Positions 14,923 to 37,575 are shown, counted from the stretch's first letter. The stretch: 42,691 nucleotides of DNA from Deltaproteobacteria bacterium (GCA_030262775.1 JAJSZP010000003.1:1-42691); one strand, 5' to 3'. Translations and numbers: made by a program. Notes: generated by a model from the sequence alone, not told the origin.

Positions 14923-15864
14923 TTATTTATTTGATGTGAATAGTGGCATCACTACCAAATTTTTATCCTCTCTTTTATTTATTGCGTTAATTGTCATTGC
15001 AAAGTGACATGGATATTTTTGAATATAATTCTCGAATATTTTTGCGATTTTCTCCATATTTGTTGTGATAAATTTTTGTTTATCTTTGTTTTGTTCAAGG
15101 ATTAGAGGCTGTTCCAGAATCAGCCTGTGTGTGTCGTCAGGTTGCCTGATCATGAATGTAGGCAGGATTACGGCACCTGTTAATGCGGCAATCCTGACAG
15201 GACCGGGTGAAAGGCTGGCCTGTCTGTCCAGGAAAGGGACTGTAACCCAATCCGTTCCGTCTCTTCCATCAAGAGCTATAGCGACCAGTTCATTGTTTTT
15301 CAGGGCTTTTATTACAGGCCTGACAGATCGATCAACATGTAGAAATTTAACCGGCAGGCCACTATTCTCTTTTACTTTAGTTTCATACATCCATTTCAAA
15401 ACCGGGCGATTTACTTCTGGTTTCCCTACAAGCTGGTTTATAGTAAACCCTTTAAATCCAAGGGCAGGCAAAATTGTCATGAATGAACCAAAATGAGACA
15501 GTTGAATAATAACCCCTTTTTCTTTTTTTAGAGCGGCATTTAAGTGTTCAACGCCTTCTATTGTTACGATCCGATCCAGATATTCCTTTGTAAGATTTCC
15601 CATAAAAAGGTTTTCTACATTCCGTTTTATATAAATTTCAAAACTTTTTTTAGCAATCCGGAGAGTATGATCTTTACTGTCTGTTTTGCATAGATCATCA
15701 ATGATTTTGCCAAGATTTTTCCGGTAGAATTTGAACAAAAGAGATGCAACAATCTTGGATAAAAAGAAAACAATTTTTACAGGAAGCATTTTTACAGCGA
15801 TTCGAAAAGGTCCCCAGAAGAACAAAAAAGCTAAATCAGTAATAACTATCTTTATTTTTCTCAT
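14923..15864 (-). CDS. LpxL/HtrB-like lysophospholipid (lipid A-type) acyltransferase
   Basis: IEGVEHL..AL..KGVI..SHFGSF, ALDG, VPFL and GP.RIA..TGA.ILP motifs. Confidence 0.85.
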   Translation of the reverse strand: MRKIKIVITDLAFLFFWGPFRIAVKMLPVKIVFFLSKIVASLLFKFYRKNLGKIIDDLCKTDSKDHTLRIAKKSFEIYIKRNVENLFMGNLTKEYLDRIVTIEGVEHLNAALKKEKGVIIQLSHFGSFMTILPALGFKGFTINQLVGKPEVNRPVLKWMYETKVKENSGLPVKFLHVDRSVRPVIKALKNNELVAIALDGRDGTDWVTVPFLDRQASLSPGPVRIAALTGAVILPTFMIRQPDDTHRLILEQPLILEQNKDKQKFITTNMEKIAKIFENYIQKYPCHFAMTINAINKREDKNLVVMPLFTSNK

Positions 15865-17343: not shown

Positions 17344-18854
17344 CTAATCTCTACTTTTAAAAAAATGAAAAACTTTTTTAAAGGTCATGACTATTCCTGG
17401 AAACAAACTTGAAATGAATATATTTTTTTCAAAAACAATAATGAACGGCTTTAACGCAAAAAACCTGATCAAAGTTTTAGATATTCTTAATCGTAAAAGA
17501 ACAAATAACAATGTAGTATAATGAATTGTTTTTTGCCTGTGCCAGACCCAGGTTTTTAAGAAGTGTTGTGGCTCCAGCAGATTATCCTGTTTTGCTTTTT
17601 CATAGAGTTTTGTCCCGCGATAAAAAACCAGGGAGTTAACTCCTATCAGAGATTGAGAAGGGGCGTGGCTTAACAGGTAGTTAAGAGTATATAGTGTATC
17701 GTCAGTTGTTTCCCAGGGATTATTTACCAGAACATCTATTAAAAGTGGAAAACCAGGATAATTATTTTTAAAAAATTTAAATATTTTATCACAATTTTTA
17801 TTAACCTTTATGCGATTATACATAGCTTCTATCCGAGGAGCCTTACTCTGCAACCCAATGTGGCATAATAATAATCCATTTTTAATAAGGTGATTCATTT
17901 TTTTTTCAGAAAATTTTTGTGGAGAGATCAGGCAGCGGAAAGGAAACCCTGATTTTTTAAAAATTTGCGCAACTTCAATAACGTCATTTCGATAAATAAA
18001 GCAGTCATCTTCAATACTGATAATTCTAACAAAAGGAATTTTTTTTTAACCCAGTTTAATTCATCTTCAATTTGATCTAATGACTTCCAGCGTACTTTAG
18101 GCGTTATGATTTTTTTTAAAATATTATTTGCACAATAAGTGCAATTATGCGGGCAACCCCTGGTGGTTTCTATGTGATAGACAGTTTGCATTTCACCAGG
18201 TACACCAGGTAGCTCATGTTTTTCAAATAAATAGTCCTGGTATTTATCTTCATCACAGGTTTCAAGCGAAAGGATTATCTGTTCTTTTTCGGAGTAAATG
18301 AAATGCCCCTCAGGTCCATAGTCAGGCAGAGGAAGAGAAGAAACATCTGAGATGTATTTTTTTTCTGGGCGAGATTTGCCTTTGAACCAAATGTTAGGTA
18401 TGGAGTTAATGTCCTGAGAGTTATTCATCTTCCGAACCAGTTCCAACATGGCATCTTCCCCCTCACCTATGCATACAGCATCAGCATATTGAAGAGCTTC
18501 TTCAGGATTTAAAGAAGGCAGTACTCCTCCCCATATAACGAGATTTGATTTGTTTTTTAAGGCCTGTGTCAGTTTTATTCCGACCTGCATATAGTTATCC
18601 ATTAAACTTATACCAATTATCGAAGAGTCTCTCGTTATATTAACAACTTGTTGAATTATCGTTTCTGGGTAATCAATGTTGGAGAAAGGAGAGATGTTTA
18701 ATGCGGAATCTGAAGAGTGTGAAGGTAAAAAAATCATTTGAGTTTTATAACCAGAATTGCGTAATATTGCGGATATTATCCTTAAACCAAGATTTAATGT
18801 ATTACTGTATGGCGAAATAAGACTCACCTGAATATTACTATCATTCAAAATCAT
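17344..18854 (-). pseudogene. Cobalamin-binding radical SAM, frameshifted at a poly-A tract
   Basis: WGG..P, IGEGE and TTRGCPHNCTYC. Adding one A at 18039-18047 gives ...KKKIPFVRIISIEDDCF..., in frame with ORF 17344..17898. Confidence 0.82.
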
Positions 18855-20198: not shown

Positions 20199-20355
20199 AG
20201 TCTCATATCCTCACTCCTGATTACATATAACCGGGATCCAAGTTTTTTCTATCTGTTTATTATTATTTAAACCTTCTCAACACACACCGATTTAATTCCC
20301 TGTGTGTGCACATGGTTCCAGTTCATACCGAGGTTATTTAATTCATAATATTTGA

Positions 20356-20945
20356 TTATAAACTTACCAATTGTTCGGATTTTTCTCTGCCGATGATTTT
20401 CTCAGCAGCATCTATTCCTTTGATTAATGGGTAAGTACCACTCAGGCTTCCTGCATTTAGCTGAGTCAATGCGCCTTTTTGTATCAGCCCATTGATCTTA
20501 TTCGGCATCTGCTGTATTTCCAGATTTCTTTCAGAGTGAGCAATTATGGGTACTAGTCTGTTTATGAGTAATTTGAAGATTACTTCTTCGGCATATAATG
20601 GAATTTGGTATGCAGGTAATTCCAGTAAGATATATTTTTTTTATACTGGATTATCAGTTTGTTATGCCTTTCAATATATTCCGGAAGGTCATGAGAAATG
20701 AAAAATTCGGCCCCGACAATTATTTTTATATTAATTTTTCTGGAAATAATTTCTTTTTCCAGTTCACTGGCAACCTTGCAAATCCTATTGCATAAATCGC
20801 TGGATGGGATTTCAAGAATATGGGGTGTGGCAACTATTACCTTTATGCCTGCACCGGCAGCTTTTTCCACTATTTTTATGGATTCATCAATAGCCCATGG
20901 ACCGTCATCAATACCGGGAAGAATATCTGTATGGATATCAATCAA
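20356..20945 (-). pseudogene. CpsB/CapC-family PHP tyrosine phosphatase, degenerate
   Basis: IDIHTDILPGIDDG, ATPH and GAE. Frameshift at the T8 tract 20635-20642, then YILLELP, IIAHSERN, QLNAGSL. The xSDAH segment is missing. Confidence 0.85.
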
Positions 20946-20988: not shown

Positions 20989-23019
20989 CTATCCGTCTGT
21001 TCCTAATTTGAACTTATTTAAAATCATCCCAATAAGATAAACATTTGCCTGGATCAAAAAATCTTTTAACTGGTAAAAAGCCTTGAGCGTTAATTTCTCA
21101 CTTTCTAATATCCCTATAGAGCCATCCACATATCCTGCCAATATTATGGCATCATTGGCCACAAGAACAGGTGGTGAATCAATTATAACCATGTCGTACT
21201 GTTCAGTGAGCTCTCCTATTAAATGTTTCATCTTATTAGATTCTATCAAACGTCCAGGATCGTGCGGAATGGGACCGCTGGTGAGCAAACTTAGACCTTT
21301 AATATCGGTTTTTATTATACTCTCTTTAAGGCCTGTCTCCTCCGCCAGGATGTTGGCAACGCCACGTAAGTTCGATACACCAAAAAATTGGTGAATAGCG
21401 GGTTTTCGAAGATCTGCATCTAAAACAACTACCCTCTTCCCTTCATGAGCAAATGAGATCGCCAAATTAATTGCAGTGGTGCTTTTACCCTCTTTTTCAA
21501 GTGCGCTGGTAACTATTAGGCTGGTTACCGGTTTATCCAGCGTAGCAAATTTAATACTATTCCGAATAGTTCGGTAAGATTCCGGTAACGGATTTTTAGG
21601 GTCCATTTCAGAAATTAATTTAGGTTGTCCCCTTCTGAACTTAGGAATCGTTCCTAATAAGGTAATCCCAAGATTCTTTACTTCATCAGACGTTTTTATG
21701 GTATCATCCAGGTAATCCACCATGAAGCCAAGACCCAACCCGAACATTAACCCCAAAAAAATACCCACGATACTGTTTAAGATAATGCTGGGACTCTCAG
21801 GATCGTCGATATCCGGCACTGTTGCTGCTTCTACCAACCTAATCTCAGAAATAGCCATAGCTTCCGCTATTCCGACTTGATAAAGACTTTCAAGGAGCGA
21901 GCTATAATGCTCTTGACTGACATTGTATTTTAATTCAAGTTGAGATTCTCTGAATACTTTATGAGGCATGACGCGTAATAACGATATATGACTTTTGATA
22001 TTTGTGTCGATGTTTTTACGTTGGGCTTTCAGCGCAGCAAGTTCTCTTTCAAAATCCTGCAAGCTTGTTGAGGTCTCCTGGAATACACTGATTTCAGTTT
22101 TCAATTCATCTCTGATTCTTGCTATCTTTTCGTTAATGGCTGCCACATCCGGATGAGCCGGCCTCTTTTCCATCAACATCCCTGCTAATTCCAACTCAAG
22201 ATCGGTTAAGGTTGTTTTGAGGTTTTTAATCTGGGGATTTTCAGTAATAGCGGAACTTGAGACCTTAGCGTCATTCTCTCTATCAAGTTGGCCTTTTAGT
22301 GTTTCTATTTCTGCCCTAACCCTGGAAATATTAAGAATATTATCCTCTTTCCCCTTTATCAAGTCCACCATTGTTTCTATAGCCACCCTGGTTTCTGTTT
22401 CCAAATCAACAGTGTCTTCCGCTATCATAAATTGTTTTATCTCATTCAAAAGATTGAAATAATCAGCCCTGGTCAATTTGATCTGATTTTCAATAAATCC
22501 TTTGGCGTTTCTGTATTCTTCCTTCATTTGACTGAGGTTATGTTCAATATATACCTCTGCCAAGCTGTTAGCAATTATCGCTGCCTCTTCCGCATCAGGT
22601 GACTGTGCCTTGATTTCAATTAAATCCGCATCCTCAATCTGTTCTAACTCTACATAGGCTTGCGGAAATATAGATGATACTATGAACTTTGATTTTTTCA
22701 ACTCACTGGGCTTCAACAAAGATCCATCTCTGGCCCTTAATTGTAATTTTGATATAACCTCTTCCAGAATTGGACCTACGATGGCCAGCTCCAAGCGCGT
22801 TTCAGTTTCCACTTCCTGCTGGTCGACACCTTGCAAACCAATAGTTGCCAAAAGAGATGATGCGGTATTTGAAGTTTTAGCGTATACTTTTGCAGACGTT
22901 TCGTACACAGAGGGGAGCAAGAAACTGCCTATTATAGCTGTAAGCGAAATAATTAAAAATGCCTGGATAATAATCCACTTTCTGCGACAGATGATTTCCC
23001 AAATTATTTTAAGTTCCAT
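20989..23019 (-). CDS. wzc: Wzc-type polysaccharide co-polymerase/BY-kinase, tyrosine cluster cut off by TAG
   Basis: Two TM segments flanking a coiled-coil periplasmic domain, ESYRTIR, Walker A EGKST, DADLRKP and IIDSPP. Confidence 0.93.
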   Translation of the reverse strand: MELKIIWEIICRRKWIIIQAFLIISLTAIIGSFLLPSVYETSAKVYAKTSNTASSLLATIGLQGVDQQEVETETRLELAIVGPILEEVISKLQLRARDGSLLKPSELKKSKFIVSSIFPQAYVELEQIEDADLIEIKAQSPDAEEAAIIANSLAEVYIEHNLSQMKEEYRNAKGFIENQIKLTRADYFNLLNEIKQFMIAEDTVDLETETRVAIETMVDLIKGKEDNILNISRVRAEIETLKGQLDRENDAKVSSSAITENPQIKNLKTTLTDLELELAGMLMEKRPAHPDVAAINEKIARIRDELKTEISVFQETSTSLQDFERELAALKAQRKNIDTNIKSHISLLRVMPHKVFRESQLELKYNVSQEHYSSLLESLYQVGIAEAMAISEIRLVEAATVPDIDDPESPSIILNSIVGIFLGLMFGLGLGFMVDYLDDTIKTSDEVKNLGITLLGTIPKFRRGQPKLISEMDPKNPLPESYRTIRNSIKFATLDKPVTSLIVTSALEKEGKSTTAINLAISFAHEGKRVVVLDADLRKPAIHQFFGVSNLRGVANILAEETGLKESIIKTDIKGLSLLTSGPIPHDPGRLIESNKMKHLIGELTEQYDMVIIDSPPVLVANDAIILAGYVDGSIGILESEKLTLKAFYQLKDFLIQANVYLIGMILNKFKLGTDG

Positions 23020-23112: not shown

Positions 23113-23652
23113 TCAATAACTTACAGAGCCTATTTTTTTCAAGGCGTTAGCCGCATTGGAACTGACATATTTATCCTTATCGTCCAACAGTGTTGTTAAT
23201 GCCGGAACAGCGCTTTTATCCTCAATATTTCCTAATGCCCAGATGGCGGTAAGCCGGACATCCTTATCTTGTAGAATTCTGATCAAATGCCTTACTGCTT
23301 TTGCGTTCTTTATCATTCCCAGCGCATCACATGACGCCGTTTTTATCTCTTTATCCTCTTCATTCAAGAGAGCAACTAATGCCTCAACAGAACTATCTTC
23401 TTCTATTTTACCTAAAGCCTCTATGGCATTTAGCCTGGTCTCTTTGAGCTGATCATTGTTTAAAAGTTCGATCAACATGGGAACAGCTCGTTTTTCTTCC
23501 TCTTCTCCAAGATAATATATGGCATTATTTATTACCATAGCATTTTCACTCTTCAAATCCTGTAGATATTTTTCGGTGTCGTTTAGACTACAGCCATAAT
23601 TAAGAAATAAAATTAAAGCTAATAAGCCACCCAAAATCTTTTTTTTAGACAT
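23113..23652 (-). CDS. HEAT-repeat lipoprotein
   Basis: Signal peptide with lipobox-like NYGC and repeated A..ALG.I....AV..L...L.D units. Confidence 0.85.
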   Translation of the reverse strand: MSKKKILGGLLALILFLNYGCSLNDTEKYLQDLKSENAMVINNAIYYLGEEEEKRAVPMLIELLNNDQLKETRLNAIEALGKIEEDSSVEALVALLNEEDKEIKTASCDALGMIKNAKAVRHLIRILQDKDVRLTAIWALGNIEDKSAVPALTTLLDDKDKYVSSNAANALKKIGSVSY

Positions 23653-23745: not shown

Positions 23746-24513
23746 TCATGGCGAAATAACAATATCCTTCTCATCTTCTTTTCCACGCAAAACATCTTCC
23801 ACTTCCGGCGCCATAATGATTCCTCTTTCCAGGCTTATAAAAGGAGTAATAATATTATTAAATCGCTGCATGAATCTTTCTAAATTAGCTATGAAGCTGG
23901 GAGGCACATAGATAATGTCACCGCTTCTTAAATGAATATCCTGATATATCTTCCCTGTCCTGAGCATATCATGGATATTTAAAGCAGCAACTCTGGCTGC
24001 ACCCTTTTCATTTCTTACCAGAAGGACCCCCTTTTCGTTGGCATCAGCAGTAAACCCTCCTGCCTGGGATATAGCTTCCCATGCCAACATCTTTTGATCC
24101 AGGATAAAAGTCCCTGGAGATTCAACCTCGCCGAGAATGTGGATCTTCCGGCTTTTTAAACTGGAAACGTTAATATCCACCTGCGGATCAATAAGGTATT
24201 TTGATAGCCCCGAAGCTATTTTTTCCCTTAATTGGGAAACGGTTAAACCTGATGCCTCAACTTTGCCCGCCAATGGAACGTAGATGTTTCCGGATGGGTC
24301 TATCTGAACTGTTCTTTTCAGATCCTCATGCCTCCAGACATTGATGGCAATCTCGTCGCCTGAGCCCAGGATAAACGAAGATGTGGGGAAGGCTGACTTT
24401 TTTTTGTCAATGATTCCCTTTTCCGTACCGCCTTCCTTGACTATTTTGTGGCCGGAACAGGCCATTGCTAACAACAGCAGCAATGGCCATATTATTTTGC
24501 AGCACTTTATCAT
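23746..24513 (-). CDS. wza: Polysaccharide export outer-membrane lipoprotein (OPX)
   Basis: Lipobox AMAC, LGSGDEI.I.VW, DPSGNIYVPLAG, SLBB motif GEVESPG, AGG and GDIIYVP. Confidence 0.92.
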   Translation of the reverse strand: MIKCCKIIWPLLLLLAMACSGHKIVKEGGTEKGIIDKKKSAFPTSSFILGSGDEIAINVWRHEDLKRTVQIDPSGNIYVPLAGKVEASGLTVSQLREKIASGLSKYLIDPQVDINVSSLKSRKIHILGEVESPGTFILDQKMLAWEAISQAGGFTADANEKGVLLVRNEKGAARVAALNIHDMLRTGKIYQDIHLRSGDIIYVPPSFIANLERFMQRFNNIITPFISLERGIIMAPEVEDVLRGKEDEKDIVISP

Positions 24514-24593: not shown

Positions 24594-26129
24594 TCATTGA
24601 ATCATAAAATTCCTGATTTCACTTGGCTCTTCAGGGGCTGTGGGCCCGGGTTTACCCAACACCCTCCAGTAAATAATCCCATTAATTTGTTCCATCCTCT
24701 TGATTATCTTCCATATTCGTTGCCACGCGTCAACCTGAATGGCATCGGTCGAAGTATAGGTCATCAAGGATTGCCTTGGAACGGTGAGAGTGGGAAATCC
24801 GAAAACAAATGAGGATGTAGGTGAAAACTCCAGCTTAAAACGATACGTGGAATCGGCCTCCCATGCAAATGTCGCCGGTGGCGACTCCGGCAGGACCGCG
24901 CCATTATCTGGAGTCAGCAGGGTAATCTCATCAGTGGCGCTATAATACCAGCTTAAAAACTCGTCCCATTGTGTATCTGCGGGAAAATCTATTATCGAAC
25001 CGTTGTAATCGCTGTCAAAACCGGTTTCTGTCTCAGGAAAATAGATGGCCAAACCGTGTGAATTGGGCAGCCAGGTGCCGTGATATTCAGCTATTACAGC
25101 AGACTCAACGGCAGTCATAACATCAAAAGCTGTCGTCTGAATATCAGGGTCAGAAGATTCAATATAGAGCAAATCGGCAAAATGGTACAGGTCGATATTT
25201 TCAGGGCAATTATATTCCTGACTACCAGCCCTGGCAGCAGTAATCTCTGACTTATTCGAATCCATGGCTGCAGCAAGATCGTTAACGCAAGAAGCAATCG
25301 TATCCATAATACTTAAGTCAATTGCTGATTGCGTAGTTTCACTTGCAGAGCCATAAGACTCACCATAACGATTTACTATGGTTGCTCCCAGATCCGTGGC
25401 GCTCATGGTCGGTAAAGCCGACAGATCTTCTATAATTGTATCATAAGGCCATCCGTCACCAGGTTCGGAAGCTTCGGAAGCGACCATGACATTAGCAAGA
25501 TCCTTTATTTCATAGGCTACCTCTGTCATGCTCATTAAACAGGCATCAAAACCTGCAAGATCAACTTGTTGCCTTTCCGTTTTAATAGTATTAAGCGCAC
25601 TTTTCACCTCGCTCATATACAGACTGTCCCCGCCACTTGTATCATCCCAACAAACCGCCCTAAGGATAGGACGTTCAGGCACATATTCGACGCGCCAGCC
25701 TCCTCCGTGGTTCCACAGAATTACAGCATAGTTGCGGGCCGGATAGTTATCCATAGACCACTTGATAAAATCTATAAGAGTCTGAGGATCAGCCATATTA
25801 ACTTCTCGGCCGCCTGTTCCGTCACCCCAGTCGGAAATGGCATTTGCCACTGTGGGAGTCATGCCGGCCGTTACCAGAAACCTCTGGCAATCTGTCCAGT
25901 TGTCAAAACTGCTGTCTTCGCCGGGAATTCTGTCGAATTGAACCACTATGTTCACATTGGAATCAGAGCCTACAGATGACATCTCCAAAAAATCATCTAT
26001 GCCGGCGTCCTCTAAATTGTTATCTCCATCCAGATAGACCATAAATGTCCAATCAGCACACTTAGCATATTGAGGTAAAAACAGACCAAAAGCCAACAAA
26101 TAAAATAAAACAGACAATATTCTTTTCAT
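24594..26129 (-). CDS. Secreted clostripain-family (C11) cysteine peptidase with a C-terminal beta domain
   Basis: Signal peptide, WTFMVYLDGDNNLE, NHGGGW (catalytic His), FDACLM (catalytic Cys) and GLAIYFP. Confidence 0.92.
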   Translation of the reverse strand: MKRILSVLFYLLAFGLFLPQYAKCADWTFMVYLDGDNNLEDAGIDDFLEMSSVGSDSNVNIVVQFDRIPGEDSSFDNWTDCQRFLVTAGMTPTVANAISDWGDGTGGREVNMADPQTLIDFIKWSMDNYPARNYAVILWNHGGGWRVEYVPERPILRAVCWDDTSGGDSLYMSEVKSALNTIKTERQQVDLAGFDACLMSMTEVAYEIKDLANVMVASEASEPGDGWPYDTIIEDLSALPTMSATDLGATIVNRYGESYGSASETTQSAIDLSIMDTIASCVNDLAAAMDSNKSEITAARAGSQEYNCPENIDLYHFADLLYIESSDPDIQTTAFDVMTAVESAVIAEYHGTWLPNSHGLAIYFPETETGFDSDYNGSIIDFPADTQWDEFLSWYYSATDEITLLTPDNGAVLPESPPATFAWEADSTYRFKLEFSPTSSFVFGFPTLTVPRQSLMTYTSTDAIQVDAWQRIWKIIKRMEQINGIIYWRVLGKPGPTAPEEPSEIRNFMIQ

Positions 26130-26208
26130 TTTTTTTGCCCTTCTCCTTTTAAGCGTAGTGCCTAATACTACAAAATTTTCTATTTGAGAAAGTAAAGAAT
26201 TGCTCCAC

Positions 26209-26595
26209 TCATTTTAGAATAATTTTTTTTACCTTAATATATGGCGCTTTATCTTTAGACAATAGTAATTGACCCTTAACAACAATTTCAGTACCCAAAG
26301 TAACATTCTTTCCAAGCCCGGCTGGAAACTTTCCCGTGACATAGATTGCCCCTGTTGAGTCTTTAACCACCCAGTCGCTTCGGGTGATTAACGGGTTTTT
26401 CAGGCCTCCTCCCTGCCATCCACGATATCGTCCGCATACAGTGATTACCTCGTTCTCATACTTTTGGATATCTTTCCATATCTCGCCGATTGGCGTGTAT
26501 TCCAGGGGAGCATCCTGTTCATTTGACTGTACCCTGCCACAGGAAATCAATATCGTCAAGATCATAAAGATAAGTGTAAATTTTTTGTTTATCAT
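26209..26595 (-). CDS. Small lipoprotein, probable OB fold
   Basis: Lipobox LISC; I.EI......YE...ITV.G and D.TG.IYV.G pattern. Confidence 0.65.
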   Translation of the reverse strand: MINKKFTLIFMILTILISCGRVQSNEQDAPLEYTPIGEIWKDIQKYENEVITVCGRYRGWQGGGLKNPLITRSDWVVKDSTGAIYVTGKFPAGLGKNVTLGTEIVVKGQLLLSKDKAPYIKVKKIILK

Positions 26596-26661: not shown

Positions 26662-28776
26662 TCAGTCTGCCATCTTCTCTATATTACACAAAAGCCCCCG
26701 CAGTTGATAGCTGCCAAAGGCCGGATCATAAGGCGGAGCGCTTGATGTTAAGACGTTAGCATTAGACTCCCATACTCCAAAATCCGGCCCCTCTCTTTCC
26801 GGAAACCACCATCCGTGATCAATATTAACTATTCCGCTTTGTATATCCTCTGTTACCACTGCTTTCATCTTTATCCTGCCACGGGGAGAACTCACGTAAA
26901 TCCAGTCTCCGTCAGCGATTCCATGAGAATCAGCTATGGCTGGATGGAGCTCAGCAGTTGGATCAGGCCTTTTTTTTCTCAAGGATTTTATCTGGCGATG
27001 TTCGCTGTGAAAAAACTCAAGCCTTCTGCTTCCAGTTGTTAGCACGTACGGGAAATCGTTTTTAAGCTCAGGTTGATTTATAGGACTCTCTGGTGGTTCT
27101 TTATATGTTGGCATTGGATCATAACCCAACCTTTCTAAGGCGTTGCAGAAAAACTCTACTTTCTTTGAAGGTGTCCTGAATCCATTTTTCTCGAACTTTC
27201 GGTACTCGTGGGGCGGGAACACCATGGATCTCTTTTTTAGTTCTTCAAACGTCAGGCCTAATGGCTCAAGTCGGTAATTTAGAATATCTTCCATTGTTTC
27301 TTCAGAACCAGGCAGGTTCAATCGTTTTGCCAAGTCTATTAAAATCTCTTCATCCTGCCTGCAAAGACCAACCTGAACCACTTTTTGCTGAGCAAAAACA
27401 GCGTTTTCAGCTACATAGGGGAGTTCAATTGTTTGATTGACTTCCGGCCAGAATGCAGCAGGTAAAAAATAATCAGCCAAAGCTGCTGTTGGAGTCATAA
27501 ACATATCAGCAACGACAAGTAAATCCAGATTTAACAGAGAATTATAAACTTCTTTTGAATTTGCTATTGTAACCATAGGATTACTGCCAAAGTTTAGAAG
27601 AGCTCTTATTGGATAGGGCTTGCCTGTTCGCATTGCTTTAAGTACGCCGGGAATATGTGCTGAAGGCAGAAATGCTCTGAATCCTCCCAACAGCTTAAAT
27701 TGTTCCCCGCCTATTCTTTTCTTTATCATCCCCTTTGGCAATTTGTCTTTTAAGACCGGATAAGGCCTGATAATATTCATGCCTAAGATATCACTGCCTG
27801 GTACATCTATATTACCGGTTAAACCTCTAAGCAAAGAAATTGCTCTAACCGTTTGCAAACTATTTGGAGTGTGTTCGATAGCTACGCCCCATTCTATAAC
27901 TGACGGCTTTTCAAGTGCATATTGCCTTGCCGCGGCGACAATTTTTTCAGCAGGAACCCAGGTAATTTCTTCAGCCCATTTGGGCGTATAGTTTGACACA
28001 TGTTCCTTTAGTCTATTGAATCCTTTTGTCCATCTTTCAACAAATTCCTTATCATAAATGCCTTGATTGATAATTACATGGGCCATGGCAAGAGCGAGTG
28101 CATCATCTGTGCCCGGTCTTGTCGGCAGCCACATTTTACAGCGTTTTGCTGTTTCAGATCTTCTAGGATCAATCGCAATGCCAAAACTGCCGGCCTTTAA
28201 TGCCCTTTTTACCGGAAACGATAGTTCCCCGTCCGGGCCAGTAACAACGGGATTATGTCCCCAAAACAAAATGGTCTTAGGGGTGACCTTGCCGTAGTAG
28301 TCTGCAACCACAAACCCGCCATAGGTCAGATGGCTTACTGTTATTCTGGGAATAAAACAATTCGCAAGTCCTGGCTCATACCAATTGGGAGTTCCAAGAG
28401 AATTGGCAAAACGTATAACATGAGTAAAATGGTGCCTGCCTGTTCCCTGACCTATGGCAATAGACTCAGGGCCTGATTCCTGCCTGATACTGTCAAGCTT
28501 ATTCGCAATTTCGTCTAAGGCCGTATCCCAACTAATTTCTTTCCAGCTATTAGAACCTCTGCTTCCAACCCTTTTCAAAGGGGTCAAAATCCTGGAAGGA
28601 TGATATATAATTTCAGGAGTAGAAAGTCCTTTAATACACATCTGTCCACGGTTAAAAGGAGAGTCGGGATTTGGCTTTACTCTTGTAAGCTTACCATCTT
28701 TTACAAATAAAAGAGCGCTGCATCCACCATGGCATACTCTGCAAACGCTTTTAAAAATTTCTTCTTTATCTTTCAA
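26662..28776 (-). CDS. Molybdo/tungsto-bis-PGD oxidoreductase, acetylene-hydratase-like clade
   Basis: CRVCHGGC...C [4Fe-4S] motif, ISWD.ALD, WG.NP, IDPRRS.TA, PGTD.AL and C-terminal HSEHRQI/HGWW. No Tat signal. Confidence 0.9.
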   Translation of the reverse strand: MKDKEEIFKSVCRVCHGGCSALLFVKDGKLTRVKPNPDSPFNRGQMCIKGLSTPEIIYHPSRILTPLKRVGSRGSNSWKEISWDTALDEIANKLDSIRQESGPESIAIGQGTGRHHFTHVIRFANSLGTPNWYEPGLANCFIPRITVSHLTYGGFVVADYYGKVTPKTILFWGHNPVVTGPDGELSFPVKRALKAGSFGIAIDPRRSETAKRCKMWLPTRPGTDDALALAMAHVIINQGIYDKEFVERWTKGFNRLKEHVSNYTPKWAEEITWVPAEKIVAAARQYALEKPSVIEWGVAIEHTPNSLQTVRAISLLRGLTGNIDVPGSDILGMNIIRPYPVLKDKLPKGMIKKRIGGEQFKLLGGFRAFLPSAHIPGVLKAMRTGKPYPIRALLNFGSNPMVTIANSKEVYNSLLNLDLLVVADMFMTPTAALADYFLPAAFWPEVNQTIELPYVAENAVFAQQKVVQVGLCRQDEEILIDLAKRLNLPGSEETMEDILNYRLEPLGLTFEELKKRSMVFPPHEYRKFEKNGFRTPSKKVEFFCNALERLGYDPMPTYKEPPESPINQPELKNDFPYVLTTGSRRLEFFHSEHRQIKSLRKKRPDPTAELHPAIADSHGIADGDWIYVSSPRGRIKMKAVVTEDIQSGIVNIDHGWWFPEREGPDFGVWESNANVLTSSAPPYDPAFGSYQLRGLLCNIEKMAD

Positions 28777-28809
28777 AATTAGTACCCGTTCACAGCAGAG
28801 AGCGCAGAG

Positions 28810-29967
28810 CTAAGAGAGAAAAGATTTTTCCGATCTTACTCTAAGCTCCACGCTCTTATTAAAACGCGCAAGAATCTTGCAGTTTTCTTCGATAATTCTC
28901 TCCGGCGATCCAAGGAGATCGCACAGGTCATCAGGACCGCCAACAATATCTGTCACAATTTCATCAAGATGAATTCGCCCATTCACACACAGGCTGAGAA
29001 TTTTGGCAAATGCTCCGCCAAGATGGCCGCGTGATCCAACCAAAGACACAGCATTGGTAATCATGTGGTCCATAGCATCCAAAACCAAAGGCTCACCGCT
29101 TCTCGCCAGGAGGGCAATACGGCCGTTGGCATTCAAGCGCCGGAATGCCCTGCTAACGTTATCCATATACCCGGAGGCCTCAATAAGCACATCGACGGAA
29201 CACGGACCATGGTCAAAGAATTCTTCAATATCGTACACATGATCGCTCCACTTCATCGCGAGCTTTCTTCGAAATTCAACAGGCTCAACAACGTGGACAC
29301 AGGAAGCACCGAAAACAACCTTGCTCAACATTGCAGAAAAAATTCCTATTGGACCGGCTCCAAAAACAAGAACCACGTCTCCTGGCCCTACACCAGTGTT
29401 CTGACAAGCAACATAAGCGACACCTGCGGGCTCAATGCATGCAGCCGCTCTCAGTCCCCTGTCGCTTTCCGCCAACGCAGAAACATCATGGCTCAGCATC
29501 GCAGGTACATCAACCACTGTGCCAAAGAGTCCATCCTTTTCCAGTCCCAACAATTGTGCATGACAACACTGATTGAACTGACCTCTCCGGCACACATCAC
29601 AGTGATGGCAAACAATGATTGACTCAAACGTAACACAGTCGCCTGGTTTCACATGGTAAACATGAGAACCAGCTTCAAGTACCCTGGCAACTCCTTCGTG
29701 CCCGATGATTCGGCCTTCAGGAGGAATCTCTGCCGGTGCGGAGCATCGAATATAGCCTGTATCAGGATTCGTCTCTACCAAATGCACGTCTGTACCGCAC
29801 AATCCTGCATAGATCATCTCCACCCTGATTTCATCAGAACGTAAGTGGCCCAGCTCACGTTTCTCAATGGAAACACGCGGATTTTGATAAATTTGGTGAG
29901 GCCCCGGATCAACAACTCCCTCTACAGGCTTTCTATCTGCACGAAGAACAACAACTTTAGATTTCAT
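28810..29967 (-). CDS. Zn-dependent MDR dehydrogenase, scyllo-inosose 3-dehydrogenase (IolM)-like
   Basis: GLCGTD, GHEG, structural Zn C..C..C.......C, GAGPIG and GSRGH, plus an IolM-like N-terminal extension and GYI insert. Confidence 0.85.
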   Translation of the reverse strand: MKSKVVVLRADRKPVEGVVDPGPHQIYQNPRVSIEKRELGHLRSDEIRVEMIYAGLCGTDVHLVETNPDTGYIRCSAPAEIPPEGRIIGHEGVARVLEAGSHVYHVKPGDCVTFESIIVCHHCDVCRRGQFNQCCHAQLLGLEKDGLFGTVVDVPAMLSHDVSALAESDRGLRAAACIEPAGVAYVACQNTGVGPGDVVLVFGAGPIGIFSAMLSKVVFGASCVHVVEPVEFRRKLAMKWSDHVYDIEEFFDHGPCSVDVLIEASGYMDNVSRAFRRLNANGRIALLARSGEPLVLDAMDHMITNAVSLVGSRGHLGGAFAKILSLCVNGRIHLDEIVTDIVGGPDDLCDLLGSPERIIEENCKILARFNKSVELRVRSEKSFLS

Positions 29968-31466
29968 GCCCCCTCCATCTCCAACGCCTTTTTATCTATT
30001 TTTCCACTCCCGATCTTAGGTAGAAATTTTCTGATCTCGACTATTCGGGGCACCTTGTATTGAGCTATTCTCCCTCTACAAAAGGCAAATATTTCTTTTT
30101 CTGTTATTTCCCTTCCATTCTTTGTCACTATAATGGCCTTAGGTACCTCGCCTCTGAGATCATCATTTGAAGCTATTACCACCGTCTCTTTAATATCCGG
30201 ATGTTCCATTAAGGCCAACTCAATCTCAAGTGGATATACCTTAAGCCCGGCAACCTTCATCAGCCCGGCTTTTCTGTCAACAAAGTAAATATTCCCTTCT
30301 CTATCCCTTTTGCCTAAATCACCACTGTAATACCAACCATTTTTAAAACAATTTTTACTGTTCATGGGATATTTATAGTAGCCATTAACAACTGCCGATC
30401 CCTTGAATATTAATTCTCCTATCTCGCCGGCGCCAACCAGCTCATCATTTTCATCCACTATTTTTACTTCATAGGACATGCAGGGTTTTCCAACCGAACC
30501 GGGAACTATCGGCCCTCCCGGCACCTGAGTAATGGCAATGCCGGTTGTTTCCGTGCTCCCCCATACAGGTATAATAGGAACGCCGATCTTTTGCCTAAAA
30601 CGCTCAACGAGTTCCGGCCTGGTATGCATTCCCCCGCTTTCCGGAACCCTGAGAGAACTAAGATCATATTCATAATGATCAAGCACATCCAGCAATTTTT
30701 CGTACATGGGCGCCAACCCCATCATACAGGTAACACTATGATCAGAAATGACCTTTGCTAAAGACTTTGGATATATCCTGTCAAGCAAGACCATAGTCCC
30801 TCCTAAATAGAGGGGTCTTGCAATTAGTTCATGAGGATGGGCGAATGGTGCAAAGATGCAAAGGTGGATATCATTTGCGGTAAGTTTAAGGGCATCAACT
30901 GCAGCTATTGTATTCCAGTATATCTGAGCGTGAGTAGTAATAGCGCCTTTAGGATTGCCTGTAGAGCCGGATGTATAGTTTAGATAAACAATATCGTTGT
31001 CTTCAGCTCTGAAACTAAAATTCTCGGATTTTTTATCTTTTATTATCTTGTCCCAGGAAATTTCTTCTTCGTTCTTATTATTGCCTGCAACTACCACTGG
31101 AATTTCTAAGCTCGAAGGAATGGATCTTTTCGCAAGGTTCAAAAACTGTTCGTGGACAATAAGGCACCTGGGGTCAATATTTTGCAATAAGACATTGATC
31201 TTATCATCCAGAAGCTCAAAATTTATGGGAACAACTACGCCTTGAACTTTTGCTATGGCCAGAAAACTGATAACCAGTTCAGGAACCCTGGGGAGCATCA
31301 GCCCAACTTTATCTCCCTTATTGACCCCCATCTCCACCAAAGCATCGGCCAGCTTGTTTACCGTCTGATTTAGTTCTCTGTAACTGATTTTTGTGTTATA
31401 ATAAATTATAGCTATCTTGTCAGGAATATCTCTTGCGTGTATCTCAAGCATCTCAACCAGAGTCAT
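29964..31466 (-). CDS. AMP-binding acyl-CoA synthetase
   Basis: YTSGSTGNPKG, WGSTET, SGDLG, DR, YPLEIE and LPK.GSGKI. ATGA overlap with the dehydrogenase. Confidence 0.93.
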   Translation of the reverse strand: MTLVEMLEIHARDIPDKIAIIYYNTKISYRELNQTVNKLADALVEMGVNKGDKVGLMLPRVPELVISFLAIAKVQGVVVPINFELLDDKINVLLQNIDPRCLIVHEQFLNLAKRSIPSSLEIPVVVAGNNKNEEEISWDKIIKDKKSENFSFRAEDNDIVYLNYTSGSTGNPKGAITTHAQIYWNTIAAVDALKLTANDIHLCIFAPFAHPHELIARPLYLGGTMVLLDRIYPKSLAKVISDHSVTCMMGLAPMYEKLLDVLDHYEYDLSSLRVPESGGMHTRPELVERFRQKIGVPIIPVWGSTETTGIAITQVPGGPIVPGSVGKPCMSYEVKIVDENDELVGAGEIGELIFKGSAVVNGYYKYPMNSKNCFKNGWYYSGDLGKRDREGNIYFVDRKAGLMKVAGLKVYPLEIELALMEHPDIKETVVIASNDDLRGEVPKAIIVTKNGREITEKEIFAFCRGRIAQYKVPRIVEIRKFLPKIGSGKIDKKALEMEGA

Positions 31467-31584: not shown

Positions 31585-33006
31585 TTATAAGGCTCCTCTA
31601 CCACCAATCACTGCTGGTATTGTTTTAAAAAGTATCTTCAGGTCGCCAATAAAACTCCAGTTGTCAATATATTCCAGATCCAATTTCATCCAATCTTCAA
31701 AAGAGATGTCATTCCTGCCACTAATCTGCCAGGTACAGGTAATCCCAGGTTTTATACTGAAGCGCTTACGTTGCCAATCCTGGGTAAAACCGTTATAATC
31801 TCGTATCGGAAGCGGCCTGGGCCCCACTAAGCTCATGCTTCCCCCTATAACATTAAATAACTGTGGCAATTCATCAATACTTGTTTTTCTAAGCCAGCGC
31901 CCAACTTTAGTAATCCTTGGATCATTTCGAATCTTGAAAACCGGACCATCCATTTCGTTCAAGATTTGATATTTTTCTTGTTCTTTTTCCGCACCCATCA
32001 CCATTGTGCGAAACTTGTATAGACGGAAAATCCGTTTGTTGTACCCTACCCGCTCCTGAGCAAAGTAAATTGGCCCTGGAGACGTGAGTTTAATGGCAAA
32101 TGCAGCCGCCAGCATCAGAGGAAAGGTCAATATTATAAATGCCAACCCCACGACCGAATCCATTGTCCTTTTTAACAGATACCGCCCATAGCCATACGGC
32201 CTTGAAGCTGCCGTCAATATCCAAAAACCGGCAAATGTTCCAGTTTTTAATGTTGTAAACTTAGTATCGAAAAGCTGAAAAATATAGCGTATTATAATGC
32301 CTTGTTCTTCGGCTTCTTTTATGATTTGTTGAGCACGTTCATATTGGGAATCAAGAGGTAAAGCAATAACCACTTCATCAACCACCTGACTCCTTAAAAT
32401 AGTCGAAAAATCATCAAGGTTTCCTAAAAGCCTTATGTTTTCTCCATGGCAATTTTTGTGATCATCAACATATCCTAATATGCGATATCCCCATTCCTCA
32501 TGTTCCTGAACCTTTCGAACAAAGTAACATGAATTCTTATTAGCTCCAACCATTAGAATAAATCGAAGATTCCTGCCATAAATACGCAACTGGTTGAGGG
32601 AATATCTTAAAATGGTGCGGAAGGATATAGTCAAAATGGTACTTGAAAGCCAAAACACAGAGAGGAACTGCCCGGTAAAAACCTTAACGCTAAAAATCTG
32701 TCCACACACCAGGATAACGACTGTCCCTATCGTTGTGGCTTTGACAATATCTTTCCACTCTTGAATATGGCCATCTAATCGGCGAGACTTGTAAAACCGG
32801 CAACTATGCAGGACAGCTCCCCATAAAAAAACAATAATTAACAGCATGATTTCATCGGCCAATCTGATGTGTAAAGACAACAGATATTCTAAGGTAATCG
32901 TCTTTGTATGGTCAGTAATGAACCATGCGAACAGTAAACTGACTATCAATATAAATATATCTGAAAGTTTATAAAGATTCAGCAGCAAACTTCGACGGAA
33001 AAACAT
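31585..33006 (-). CDS. Priming polyprenyl-phosphate glycosylphosphotransferase (WcaJ/CpsE-like)
   Basis: N-terminal TMs, KFRTM, DPRIT.VG..LRKTSIDELPQL.NV, MSLVGPRP, KPGIT and DLEYI. Confidence 0.95.
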   Translation of the reverse strand: MFFRRSLLLNLYKLSDIFILIVSLLFAWFITDHTKTITLEYLLSLHIRLADEIMLLIIVFLWGAVLHSCRFYKSRRLDGHIQEWKDIVKATTIGTVVILVCGQIFSVKVFTGQFLSVFWLSSTILTISFRTILRYSLNQLRIYGRNLRFILMVGANKNSCYFVRKVQEHEEWGYRILGYVDDHKNCHGENIRLLGNLDDFSTILRSQVVDEVVIALPLDSQYERAQQIIKEAEEQGIIIRYIFQLFDTKFTTLKTGTFAGFWILTAASRPYGYGRYLLKRTMDSVVGLAFIILTFPLMLAAAFAIKLTSPGPIYFAQERVGYNKRIFRLYKFRTMVMGAEKEQEKYQILNEMDGPVFKIRNDPRITKVGRWLRKTSIDELPQLFNVIGGSMSLVGPRPLPIRDYNGFTQDWQRKRFSIKPGITCTWQISGRNDISFEDWMKLDLEYIDNWSFIGDLKILFKTIPAVIGGRGAL

Positions 33007-35334: not shown

Positions 35335-36501
35335 TTATATTCCATTTTGCAGAATGGATGGGAGCTCTTTTAGCGCTTTTTCTACAGGCAGTATGGAGAT
35401 GTTGTCTACATATTCCGGCCTTGAACCACCATATAGCATGTATAGCTTCGCTTCGGGATAGTCATTTGCAAATGACTTCAGTCCGTTAAGATCTTTTTTT
35501 GCAATTCGGCTGGAACGTTTTATTTCAAAAGCAAGAAGACCCTTTGGGCCATAGAGAATAAAATCAACTTCAACGCCATTGCTCGTTCGCCAGTAATACA
35601 GATTATATTCATAGTTGTAATAGTCATTGATGGCAGACAATTCTTGAAAGCAAAGGGTTTCCAGGCCTGGCCCTTCAGCTTCTTGAGGAGAATCAAGCGG
35701 TCCCATAGGACGGAGTGTCCGAAAAAAACCTACATCAAAAAAGTAGAATTTAGGATGGGATATCATTCTTCGCTTTGCCCTTCGTGTAAAGACAGGAAGG
35801 GAGGTGGATAGAAGAAGATCTTCAAGTACTGAAAAGTAGTTTGTAACTCGCATTCTTTCAATACCGGATTCTCTTGCTATCTCGGAAATATTCAATACTG
35901 ATCCCTGTGAAAAGGAAGCTGTTTCAAGAAAACGTGAAAAACTGCCTAAATTCCTTGTTAAGCCTTCCTGCAGAATTTCCTCTCGTAAATATGTCTGAAC
36001 ATAGGCCTTTAAAAAGAGATTGGGGTTTTTTTCATAAAGAATTGAGGGCAAATGCCCCCATGCTAATGACTTTTTCAAACAAAAGCTGTCGCCCAGTTCA
36101 ACGGCTGTAAGAGGATACATTTTGTAGGTTAAGGCACGCCCAGCCAGTAGATTTACACCTTTCTTTCTGAGAGTTCTATCACTGGAGCCCGTGAGTATGA
36201 ATTTGTAGTGAAAAGTTTCTATTAACCGATGGACCTCGTTTAATAGTTCCGGAATCCTCTGGATCTCATCAAGAATGATCCAGTTTTGAAAACCTGGGGG
36301 TATTAGATTTTCCAGGCGATCCGGCCGTGCTAAAAAATCATTATAAAAATCAAATTTCAGGAGATCAAAGTACACAGCTTCCGAAAAGATGCTTTTTATC
36401 CATGTAGTTTTTCCAGCACCTCTTGGTCCAAACAGAAAAAAACTCTTGTTATTATCAACCGGAATTTTTAGCAATCTGCTGAACATAATTTCATTTTGCA
36501 T
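35335..36501 (-). CDS. AAA_14 ATPase with DUF4143/PD-(D/E)xK domain
   Basis: GPRGAGKT, ILDEIQ, LTGSS, LAGRA, PKFYFFD and YWRT..GVEVDF...FEIK. Confidence 0.9.
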   Translation of the reverse strand: MQNEIMFSRLLKIPVDNNKSFFLFGPRGAGKTTWIKSIFSEAVYFDLLKFDFYNDFLARPDRLENLIPPGFQNWIILDEIQRIPELLNEVHRLIETFHYKFILTGSSDRTLRKKGVNLLAGRALTYKMYPLTAVELGDSFCLKKSLAWGHLPSILYEKNPNLFLKAYVQTYLREEILQEGLTRNLGSFSRFLETASFSQGSVLNISEIARESGIERMRVTNYFSVLEDLLLSTSLPVFTRRAKRRMISHPKFYFFDVGFFRTLRPMGPLDSPQEAEGPGLETLCFQELSAINDYYNYEYNLYYWRTSNGVEVDFILYGPKGLLAFEIKRSSRIAKKDLNGLKSFANDYPEAKLYMLYGGSRPEYVDNISILPVEKALKELPSILQNGI

Positions 36502-36594: not shown

Positions 36595-37575
36595 TCAATT
36601 TTTCCGCAACCGCCTGGTCAGTCGAGGCAGAAGCAATTCTCTTTCCAACAGTCTCCAGATATAATCAACTTCAACTGTTCTGTTTTTTTGAATTTGCTTT
36701 CTTTTTTTTAATGCTTTCTTTATACCCTTCAGCGCATCCCATTTAGCTTTTATAAAATCTTTGTTTCGGCCGCGCGCTGTAAAAAAGAAAAAAGCCGCTA
36801 TGTCATAGATAATGTGGGAAAAGATAGTTTTAAGTATCAATCCGGCAGGCATATTTTGGATATAAACCCATTCCAGATTTCGATGGCTGTAGTAAACTGA
36901 AATTGCTGAGTCATAACCTATGGTTCCGCTAGCCTTATGATATACAACGGCATCAGGTACATATATGCACTTGTAGCCTTGCAATTGTGCTCTGAAACTA
37001 AGGTCAACGTCTTCATAGAGTAAAAAGAAATCCTCATCAAAAAGACCGATATCACGAAGCATTCGTGTACGATAAAGAGCAGCACCCGCGCATGCCCCGA
37101 AAATCCACTCCTGCCGATCATAATTCGTTGCTGATGTTCCGCGACCACGGAGAAGCCCTGCCCCAGCCCTCGTATAAGAATCTCCTGCTCGATCAATGAT
37201 TTTGGGATTGTCGTAAAAAAGAATTTTTGAAGCTGCACATCCTGCTTCCGGATAAGTCTCAATGGCTTTCACCAGCGTCTTAAGCCAGAGAGGATGAGGA
37301 ACTGCATCGTTGTTAAGCAATGCTATATATTCGGTTTGGACCATTTCAAGGGCTATATTGTTTGCACTGGAAAAGCCAACGTTTTTTGAAAGAGCGATAA
37401 TCTTAACCTCGGGGTAATTGCGTGAAACAAAATCAACGGATCCATCCTCAGATCCATTGTCTACAAAAGTGATACTTACTGGTTCGTAAACTTGCTGCCT
37501 AAGGCTATCCAAGCATGTGGAAAGAAAGTCTTTTCCGTTCCAGTTTACTATAATAACATTTATCATTTCTGTCAT
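36595..37575 (-). CDS. GT2 glycosyltransferase (WbbL/rhamnosyltransferase-like)
   Basis: IVNWNG, DNGS.DGS, LLNNDA, GLFDEDFF and EDVDL. Confidence 0.92.
   Translation of the reverse strand: MTEMINVIIVNWNGKDFLSTCLDSLRQQVYEPVSITFVDNGSEDGSVDFVSRNYPEVKIIALSKNVGFSSANNIALEMVQTEYIALLNNDAVPHPLWLKTLVKAIETYPEAGCAASKILFYDNPKIIDRAGDSYTRAGAGLLRGRGTSATNYDRQEWIFGACAGAALYRTRMLRDIGLFDEDFFLLYEDVDLSFRAQLQGYKCIYVPDAVVYHKASGTIGYDSAISVYYSHRNLEWVYIQNMPAGLILKTIFSHIIYDIAAFFFFTARGRNKDFIKAKWDALKGIKKALKKRKQIQKNRTVEVDYIWRLLERELLLPRLTRRLRKN

Follow-up and report, generated by a model that had tools for sequence, protein, structure and literature searches.

Why should an enzyme of the bis-(pyranopterin guanine dinucleotide) (bis-PGD) type, a class whose known members serve in respiration, in assimilation, in anaerobic catabolism and, less often, in natural-product pathways, be encoded between the priming and the export genes of a bacterial polysaccharide locus? 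The question is raised by a 42.7-kb stretch of DNA assigned to a Deltaproteobacteria bacterium (GCA_030262775.1, JAJSZP010000003.1:1-42691; hereafter the window), in which an adenylate-forming ligase, a zinc-dependent dehydrogenase and a molybdenum or tungsten (Mo/W) enzyme related to acetylene hydratase occupy positions 26662-31466. On balance we think it probable that this trio is a dedicated tailoring module of an exported glycan, through which a shikimate-derived ring acid would be activated by the ligase and attached to the glycan. An earlier note on this sequence had proposed that the trio prepares a precursor for glycan decoration by hydration, dehydration or dehydroxylation. The link to glycans has stood, being strongly supported by synteny across the clade of the Mo/W enzyme; the chemistry is plausible, and what we say of the reaction type, of the substrate used in this genome, of the metal and of the acceptor is inferred.

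All genes of the window lie on the minus strand, except for one small transposase fragment, and they make up a single large polysaccharide locus. The trio sits on this strand between a priming polyprenyl-phosphate glycosylphosphotransferase (PGT) and a Wza-type export protein. The PGT (31585-33006; Pfam Bac_transf and CoA_binding_3) scores 406.8 bits on NCBIfam model TIGR03025, against a cut-off of 295.55, and is directly upstream of the ligase, a 500-residue acid-CoA/AMP ligase of the ANL superfamily (29964-31466; AMP-binding and AMP-binding_C). There follow the dehydrogenase, a zinc-dependent member of the medium-chain dehydrogenase/reductase (MDR) family of polyol or cyclitol type (28810-29967; 385 residues; ADH_N and ADH_zinc_N), and the Mo/W enzyme (26662-28776; 704 residues from a TTG start; Molybdop_Fe4S4, Molybdopterin and Molydop_binding). 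As the earlier note had described, the ligase stop and the dehydrogenase start overlap by 4 bp at 29964-29967 (ATGA; sequence GGGGGCATGAAATC), the Mo/W enzyme begins 33 bp beyond the dehydrogenase, and the trio directly follows the priming enzyme, from which 118 bp separate it. A weak consensus scan found no terminator-like or promoter sites in the three short minus-strand gaps; for promoters it gave 46 matches against 31 in shuffled sequence, a modest excess only. The GC content of the trio is 42-48.5%, that of the assembly is 39.8% on average and that of the remainder of the locus is lower, a comparison that gives no clear sign of the trio alone having been inserted.

The Mo/W enzyme belongs to the DMSO-reductase (bis-PGD) superfamily by its domains (137.7 bits for Molybdopterin, 75.9 for Molydop_binding and 54.8 for Molybdop_Fe4S4, all above cut-offs), its N-terminal 4Fe-4S cysteines and its candidate ligand cysteine. 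Its best solved relative by sequence is the acetylene hydratase of Pelobacter acetylenicus (2e7z; E 3e-115, 389 bits), with 34% identity in structural alignment. An AlphaFold model (predicted local distance difference test 92.3, predicted template-modelling (TM) score 0.91) also returns 2e7z at the top of a Foldseek search (TM 0.91/0.88), followed by polysulfide reductase (0.85), and its fold matches the 2e7z, 2vpw, FDH and Nap structures at TM 0.8-0.9. In the alignment with 2e7z, C12, C15, C19 and C47 fall on the FeS cysteines, K49 on the lysine after the fourth of these, and Cys140 on the ligand cysteine (LANCF over MYMCI), which agrees with the earlier choice of the LANCFIPR motif as the source of a ligand. 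Like acetylene hydratase, the enzyme combines an N-terminal CxxCxxxC...C cluster motif with a stand-alone, cytoplasmic character: there is no RR within its first 40 residues that would mark a signal for twin-arginine translocation (Tat), the FeS motif begins at residue 12, and no open reading frame (ORF) with a ferredoxin-type CxxCxxCxxxCP motif occurs anywhere in the window, so that the absence of a Tat signal and of a partner subunit, and with it the cytoplasmic location claimed earlier, are upheld.

The active site is another matter. In acetylene hydratase Asp13 is catalytic, and Ile14, Ile113, Ile142, Trp179, Trp293 and Trp472 form a small hydrophobic substrate ring. In the enzyme of the window CRVCH lies over CQSCD, placing His16 on Asp13 as the earlier note had observed; Ile14 is replaced by Gly17, Ile142 by F141, the Ile113 loop by GQGTGRHH and Trp472 by Tyr454, at a position that varies within the clade, and only Trp293 is kept, as W296. 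His16 is no peculiarity, however, and is typical of a large part of the family, since among the 103 of the 150 nearest representatives that have a CxxCx motif the residue after the second cysteine is His in 34, which makes it the commonest, and Asp in 4. We took as orthologues Mo/W enzymes of at least 58% identity, which gave 24 loci from public genomes and 37 from metagenomes (55 after dereplication) and, together with database clusters, 143 sequences. Across all 143, C12, C15, C19, C47, H16, G17, G18, K49, C140, R144 and W296 are invariant, and CRxCHGGC is present in all 39 full-length copies from the loci. Specific to the clade are the GQGTGRHH loop and the invariant R13, R114, H115, H116, H174 and R603, Arg and His residues that may fit an anionic substrate.

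In a FastTree phylogeny of 165 sequences (10 near-duplicates having been removed) the CRxCHGGC sequences form one clade with support of 100, which also includes a long-branched database representative (P0098); the nearest outsiders are L077 (52% identity) and P0005 (47%), and the CxxCD sequences (P0046, P0050) lie far off; the homologues of approximately 40% identity, whose setting is described below, are likewise separate from the clade. A family phylogeny had been proposed as a check on the earlier note, and it sets the clade apart from the CxxCD type; the position of the catechol dehydroxylases, considered below, is taken from the literature. Database names for clade members are generic only, and their records are labelled Desulfobacterales, Smithellaceae, Nitrospirota, Thermodesulfovibrionia, Planctomycetia, Thiomargarita, Parabeggiatoa and Desulfamplus, with at least one cultured carrier, Desulfamplus magnetovallimortis (L028). 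Unusual forms occur both outside and within the clade. L077 has an N-terminal extension of approximately 300 residues, and fused forms at approximately 39% identity are found in L030, L117 and L119-L123, that of L030, from a record labelled Thaumarchaeota, being a 986-residue protein with an N-terminal metallo-beta-lactamase domain. The Mo/W enzyme ORF ends at 465 residues in L005 (8665-10062) and runs into Wza in L020 (5355-8255; 983 residues); these two could be broken genes or assembly errors.

The ligase scores 277 bits on AMP-binding and 68 on AMP-binding_C, above cut-offs, and has all the ANL core motifs (TSGSTGNPKG at 165-174, GSTE at 303, SGD at 381 and GKI at 488-490, including the C-terminal lysine); no NCBIfam equivalog is reached above its cut-off (best NF004837, 391 against 476), and its solved relatives, which include non-ribosomal peptide synthetase A domains and feruloyl-, anthranilate-, oxalate- and benzoate-CoA ligases, all score 160-212 bits and do not discriminate between substrates. 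The dehydrogenase has the zinc ligands, Rossmann motif and Pfam domains of an MDR alcohol or polyol dehydrogenase (Cys57, His90-Glu91, structural-zinc cysteines C120, C123, C126 and C134, and GAGPIG at 203-208). An acidic residue, Glu228, ends its second strand, and because of this the enzyme is suggested to use NAD rather than NADP. Among solved structures it comes closest to a zinc alcohol dehydrogenase (3ip1) and to threonine and polyol dehydrogenases, and its best NCBIfam model is IolM (NF041097), the scyllo-inosose 3-dehydrogenase; since the gene of the window scores only 216 bits there, in a range of 216-227, against a cut-off of 450, the earlier description of it as IolM-like holds as a likeness and not as an equivalog assignment.

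What links these genes to glycans is their arrangement in other genomes, which we regard as beyond chance because it is conserved in dozens of related loci. By tblastn a glycan assembly or export gene is present in 40 of the 55 loci; when only the 33 loci flanked by 5 kb or more are counted, it is present in 27. The typical order is PGT, ligase, dehydrogenase, Mo/W enzyme and Wza. The PGT adjoins the ligase in every locus that holds both (17/17), and where at least 3 kb of upstream sequence is available (n=26) the ligase is found in 20 loci, the dehydrogenase in 20 and the PGT in 18. The dehydrogenase is directly upstream of the Mo/W enzyme in 16 loci, and is found anywhere in the locus in 22 of the 31 with at least 1.2 kb upstream. 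Downstream, Wza is present in 31 of the 43 loci with at least 1 kb of sequence, and is the immediate neighbour in 12. Further components of the window recur: the order of Wza, a HEAT-repeat protein and Wzc is repeated in L005, L016, L028, L080 and L115; LpxL-like acyltransferases are found, for example, in L005, L006, L008, L012-L015, L062, L087 and L125; and genes for B12-binding radical SAM proteins flank the Mo/W enzyme in many relatives. The earlier note would have been undone had the trio usually occurred in catabolic settings away from glycan genes. It is only the homologues of approximately 40% identity (examined in L023, L026, L027, L030 and L031) that lie in a catabolic setting, beside TRAP/Tct transporters, amidohydrolases, CoA-transferase, phosphoenolpyruvate-utilising enzymes, metallo-beta-lactamases and a second, respiratory-type Mo enzyme.

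The substrate is suggested by a second feature of the related loci, which is new here: shikimate-entry genes are placed within the Mo-enzyme glycan operons. In L008 the dehydrogenase is separated from the Mo/W enzyme by genes for a fused chorismate mutase/3-deoxy-D-arabino-heptulosonate 7-phosphate (DAHP) synthase, a 3-dehydroquinate synthase and a type II dehydroquinase, and the same set, or part of it, is found in L011, L014, L018, L024, L065, L067, L071, L079, L084, L085 and L087, giving 12 of the 55 loci and 10 of the 26 for which 3 kb or more of upstream sequence is available. Such loci typically have the order ligase, dehydrogenase, aroA(G), aroB, aroQ and Mo/W enzyme. In L067 all three pass the curated NCBIfam cut-offs (474 against 279 for the bifunctional DAHP synthase/chorismate mutase, NF009239; 371 against 305 for aroB; 207 against 170 for aroQ), and in five of five genomes examined the operon DAHP synthase is an extra copy, the other paralogue, approximately 53% identical, being located elsewhere. 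DAHP synthase, dehydroquinate synthase and dehydroquinase together yield 3-dehydroshikimate, and neither a shikimate dehydrogenase nor a dehydroshikimate dehydratase was found among 63 neighbouring ORFs scanned. This composition points to 3-dehydroshikimate as the precursor; because the aro set of the operon ends at this compound, the simplest reading would be that the trio acts on it or on a close derivative. For the same reason, the presence of aroA(G)-aroB-aroQ inside the operon in 12 related loci, the inositols and inososes that the earlier note had named as candidate substrates are less likely than a shikimate intermediate. IolM is likewise an MDR zinc enzyme, acting on a keto-cyclitol whose ring is chemically similar to those of dehydroquinate and dehydroshikimate; no other inositol-catabolism genes are found near the dehydrogenase.

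In proposing a mechanism, we envisage the trio as a module that does its tailoring in the cytoplasm, within a locus for a Wzx/Wzy-type, Wza/Wzc-exported polysaccharide (or for a lipid-linked glycan). Its input would be a six-membered carbocyclic acid of the early shikimate pathway, most likely 3-dehydroshikimate; the NAD-type dehydrogenase would oxidise or reduce the ring at a hydroxyl or keto group, and the Mo/W enzyme would take off or shift a ring oxygen. We prefer for the latter a reductive loss of a hydroxyl beside a ring carbonyl, comparable to that of catechol dehydroxylases and with electrons from a general ferredoxin, the substrate being either dehydroshikimate itself or a catechol acid made from it by the dehydrogenase. 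The outcome would be a hydroxybenzoate pattern beyond that available through simple dehydration, which gives protocatechuate. As an alternative, water would be eliminated or shifted without redox chemistry, in the manner of acetylene hydratase, and this would fit the lack of a partner protein. The ligase would then activate the (hydroxy)benzoate- or cyclohexene-carboxylate-type acid as acyl-AMP or acyl-CoA, and the acid would join the repeat unit begun by the adjacent PGT, either by itself or as the unit from which a short acyl chain is started; candidates for its attachment are the LpxL-like acyltransferases, an E2/CAT-like acyltransferase that follows the Mo/W enzyme in L069 and L076, and a carrier-protein route. 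More tentatively, and with somewhat less confidence than in the module itself, we suggest that the bis-PGD enzyme and the cyclitol-type dehydrogenase provide an oxygen-independent path from 3-dehydroshikimate to a hydroxybenzoate-type or cyclohexene-carboxylate unit, which the ligase installs on an exported glycan, and that this path is dedicated to the purpose in anaerobes and has spread horizontally among Desulfobacterota, Nitrospirota, Planctomycetota and large sulfur bacteria.

The dehydroxylase precedent rests on the claim, made in the earlier note and stated in PMC7028382, that the acetylene-hydratase branch also includes the catechol dehydroxylases Dadh, Hcdh, Cadh, Dodh and Cldh of Eggerthella and Gordonibacter; the kinship of our enzyme with them is thus a matter of literature, the tree having no named dehydroxylases. 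These enzymes act on hydroxylated six-membered rings, and according to the same paper homologues are encoded by the gene clusters for CC-1065 and yatakemycin, so that members of the branch have been recruited to antibiotic biosynthesis and there is a precedent for a role other than a respiratory one (PMC7028382). For Dadh it is proposed there that the departing hydroxyl binds Mo and the adjacent hydroxyl tautomerises to a ketone (PMC7028382); we favour a reductive removal of ring oxygen because 3-dehydroshikimate already has a ketone beside a hydroxyl, as that proposal would require. The Gordonibacter type shares with our enzyme that it is soluble, smaller and Tat-less, whereas those of E. lenta carry a Tat signal and come with a 4Fe-4S subunit and a membrane anchor (PMC7028382). 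The Gordonibacter enzymes do have a small 4Fe-4S partner gene by that account (PMC7028382), and there is none in the window or in most related loci; neither arrangement of partners, the Tat signal, 4Fe-4S subunit and anchor or the small 4Fe-4S protein, is seen in the window.

Other systems share parts of the proposed scheme. In the petrobactin branch, AsbF, a dehydroshikimate dehydratase, makes 3,4-dihydroxybenzoate and AsbC activates the aryl acid, so that 3-dehydroshikimate is diverted to an aryl acid and then activated by an ANL enzyme for attachment, much as we propose; a simple metal-dependent dehydratase serves there, however, while here an MDR dehydrogenase and a Mo/W enzyme would be employed, with no adjacent aryl carrier protein and presumably a glycan as acceptor. 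The assimilatory nitrate reductases NarB and NasA are monomeric cytoplasmic bis-PGD enzymes that receive electrons from soluble ferredoxin or flavodoxin, and resemble the Mo/W enzyme in having a single subunit and a single 4Fe-4S cluster, although they are distant from it (120-205 bits on the NasC and NasA models, far under their cut-offs) and have another substrate and context. Because such monomeric, ferredoxin-dependent members of the family exist, the absence of a partner is compatible with redox chemistry; it fits a non-redox enzyme as well as a ferredoxin-dependent one. To our knowledge no dehydroxylase has come from a polysaccharide locus.

The relatives that branch deepest within the clade bear on how firmly the three genes belong together. 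In L012, L013, L015, L072 and L102 the Mo/W enzyme follows a DUF362-ferredoxin fusion, a B12-binding radical SAM protein resembling HpnJ (370-438 bits, under the cut-off of 578) and a family 2 glycosyltransferase (GT2). The same genomes encode a ligase 66-68% identical to that of the window, directly followed by a different MDR dehydrogenase and then Wzc; this pair is on the contig of the Mo/W enzyme in two of three genomes, and in L102 everything is side by side. Because a ligase and an MDR dehydrogenase, if a different one, are still present, the trio is thus retained in function, if not in order. HpnJ-like genes are also found after the Mo/W enzyme in at least eight loci of the main clade, often with a short-chain dehydrogenase/reductase (SDR) of the sugar dehydratase/epimerase type, and homologues of the GT2 gene that we call GT2a (36595-37575 in the window; Glycos_transf_2) occur in seven related loci, in the order radical SAM gene, GT2a, Mo/W enzyme in L012, L013 and L015 and in the order Mo/W enzyme, radical SAM gene, GT2a in L018. 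Ferredoxin-motif ORFs are present in seven of the 55 loci, as the DUF362-ferredoxin in L012, L013, L015, L018 and L072 and as unrelated genes in L003 and L010.

Several observations weigh against our proposal and have to be set beside the evidence for it. In four of the deep-branching loci (L012, L013, L015, L072) the Mo/W enzyme does not adjoin the ligase and dehydrogenase, and a search of the L007 and L020 genomes found no orthologue of the dehydrogenase. Of the 26 loci that extend 3 kb or more upstream, fourteen have no aro gene, besides two with a partial aro gene only, and neither the window nor its assembly has an operon-type DAHP synthase, the only match being KdsA-like at 30% identity; since the assembly lacks a dedicated copy, the shikimate link for the window itself rests on orthology. 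The window, like most of the loci, encodes no dedicated partner for electron transfer, and it has neither an acyl carrier protein nor an obvious aryl transferase. Among the loci flanked by 5 kb or more, six (L001, L003, L069, L071, L072, L074) show no glycan gene by tblastn. Pfam does recognise a GT28 fragment and phosphodiesterases in L069, and a GT2 and an alginate-export protein in L072; L071 shows upstream genes only. L003 has a polyketide synthase (PKS) module instead of glycan genes, L001 has acyl-CoA and 3-hydroxyacyl-CoA dehydrogenases on the opposite strand, and L074 has an enoyl-CoA hydratase, with ABC transporter genes on the opposite strand. The enoyl-CoA hydratase of L074 and the E2/CAT-like gene mentioned above, CoA-type neighbours that appear in single loci, count on the other hand in favour of the proposal.

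The attribution of the window is a further difficulty of the same sort. No Mo/W enzyme of at least 58% identity was found in 60 relatives of the assembly (12 from its genus, a further 13 from its family and 35 from its order; best 50%), and a search of 25 genomes from its family did not find the Wza of the window either. Because neither has been found in close relatives, the 42.7-kb contig may be a horizontally acquired mobile island or may have been mis-binned. The assembly does have moaA (368 bits, above cut-off), two moeA genes and one MobA-like gene, which give indirect support for a bis-PGD cofactor, and two other Mo enzymes; given the uncertain membership of the contig, this argument from its own genome is weakened.

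Two rival explanations draw on a companion contig in the same assembly (C27; L145 1-20000), a glycan and lipid locus that encodes a flippase, two LpxL-like acyltransferases, a DegT aminotransferase, a radical SAM/SPASM protein, a GT9, a sulfotransferase, a DUF362-ferredoxin, two B12-binding radical SAM proteins (one HpnJ-like), two ketosynthase-like proteins and an acyl carrier protein, besides an 861-residue protein with no Pfam match, an orthologue of GT2a and a PEGA protein. According to one, which we consider unlikely, a short polyketide or fatty-acyl chain is started from the ring acid and is attached to the glycan by LpxL-like enzymes, giving a lipidated or aryl-capped glycoconjugate, by analogy with the mycobacterial phenolic glycolipids and their p-hydroxybenzoate starter. 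In L003, where the Mo/W enzyme has 72% identity, the genes behind it are an AMP-ligase-like one, a radical SAM one and those of the PKS module, with an acyl carrier protein and a ketosynthase; C27 places the flippase, the LpxL-like and ketosynthase-like pairs, the carrier protein, the aminotransferase, the DUF362-ferredoxin, the B12-binding radical SAM pair and the GT2a orthologue in one locus; LpxL-like genes recur across related loci; and the B12-binding radical SAM proteins of the window match a 'lipid biosynthesis B12-binding/radical SAM' model, if under its cut-off. Yet in the window, and in most of its related loci, the trio adjoins neither a ketosynthase nor a carrier protein, C27 has no established linkage to the contig of the window, and the constant neighbour of the ligase is the PGT and not a carrier protein. 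Less probable again, in our view, is that the substrate of the Mo/W enzyme is a carbocycle derived from a sugar, or else the glycan, the HpnJ-like protein and GT2 making a cyclitol-type residue that the dehydrogenase and Mo/W enzyme oxidise, dehydrate or deoxygenate. The order of genes in the deep-branching loci, the recurrence of the same radical SAM type and of the SDR enzymes in the main clade, and a cyclitol dehydrogenase as the best model for the dehydrogenase all agree with it, but the dedicated aroA(G)-aroB-aroQ set between the dehydrogenase and the Mo/W enzyme in many loci and the presence of an acid-activating ligase would be left unexplained, and the HpnJ-like scores fall short of the family cut-off.

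That the enzyme is a true acetylene hydratase, or some other small-molecule catabolic or respiratory enzyme that lies in a polysaccharide locus by accident, is a reading we reject as very improbable. It has in its favour that 2e7z is the best solved relative by both sequence and fold and that both proteins stand alone in the cytoplasm with one FeS cluster. Against this, the catalytic aspartate is replaced by histidine in 143 of 143 orthologues, the pocket is mostly lost, the CxxCD sequences are placed elsewhere in the tree, more than 150 family clusters in a library of 1.8 billion proteins outscore acetylene hydratase's 389 bits, and the context is one of glycan biosynthesis across many lineages and not of acetylene use.

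The remainder of the window is that of a Wzx/Wzy-dependent, Wza/Wzc-exported locus, in which the PGT, a Wzy-like polymerase (Wzy_C), Wza and Wzc are clustered; no flippase was seen in the window itself. The export proteins are Wza (23746-24513; Poly_export and SLBB) and Wzc, a chain-length/tyrosine-kinase protein (20989-23019; Wzz, GNVR and AAA_31), with the small HEAT/PBS-lyase-repeat protein between them (23113-23652; Pfam), an unusual member of such an export pair. Next to Wzc is a CpsB/CapC phosphatase ORF (20580-20945) whose match to a 234-position profile covers positions 1-105 only and behind which there is a gap of 381 bp (20199-20579); it may be truncated or broken. The LpxL-like acyltransferase (14923-15864; Lip_A_acyltrans, 81.7 bits) is a candidate for acyl-group transfer, and is accompanied by the three B12-binding radical SAM genes (13633-14694, 15906-17336 and 17928-18854; Pfam), whose best NCBIfam model is BzaD at 227-242 bits, under the cut-off of 450. 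The locus also includes a carbamoyltransferase, a sulfatase and its radical-SAM maturase, a WbuX amidotransferase and several glycosyltransferases, among the genes for which there is one for an AAA_14/DUF4143 ATPase (35335-36501). The carbamoyltransferase co-occurs with an SxtJ-like small protein both in the window (4418-4825, 6739-8601) and in L012 (3386-5635). All of these genes are on the minus strand, and the sole plus-strand gene (5024-5347) is a 107-residue C-terminal fragment of a DDE_3 transposase (52.7 bits) in a 642-bp gap. Between the Mo/W enzyme and Wza (24594-26595) are genes for a clostripain-family (C11) peptidase and a 128-residue lipoprotein-like ORF; this pair looks like a recent insertion, because Wza directly follows the Mo/W enzyme in the closest distinct relative (L061, 92% identity), while L064 (99%) has the lipoprotein.

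A literature search found no paper in which polysaccharide loci or dehydroshikimate are connected with the acetylene-hydratase branch or with molybdopterin enzymes in general. A role in the building of cell-surface polymers would be a new field of use for bis-PGD enzymes and, if our proposal is true, this would be the first of them in glycan biosynthesis and the operon would mark a new branch point of the shikimate pathway, suggesting an undescribed exit at 3-dehydroshikimate. The question is directly testable, since the gene set is compact, conserved and present in at least one cultured organism. For the organisms concerned, our observations suggest that sediment anaerobes, including filamentous and multicellular forms, bear aromatic or carbocyclic groups on their exopolysaccharides, which could influence adhesion, metal binding and redox behaviour.

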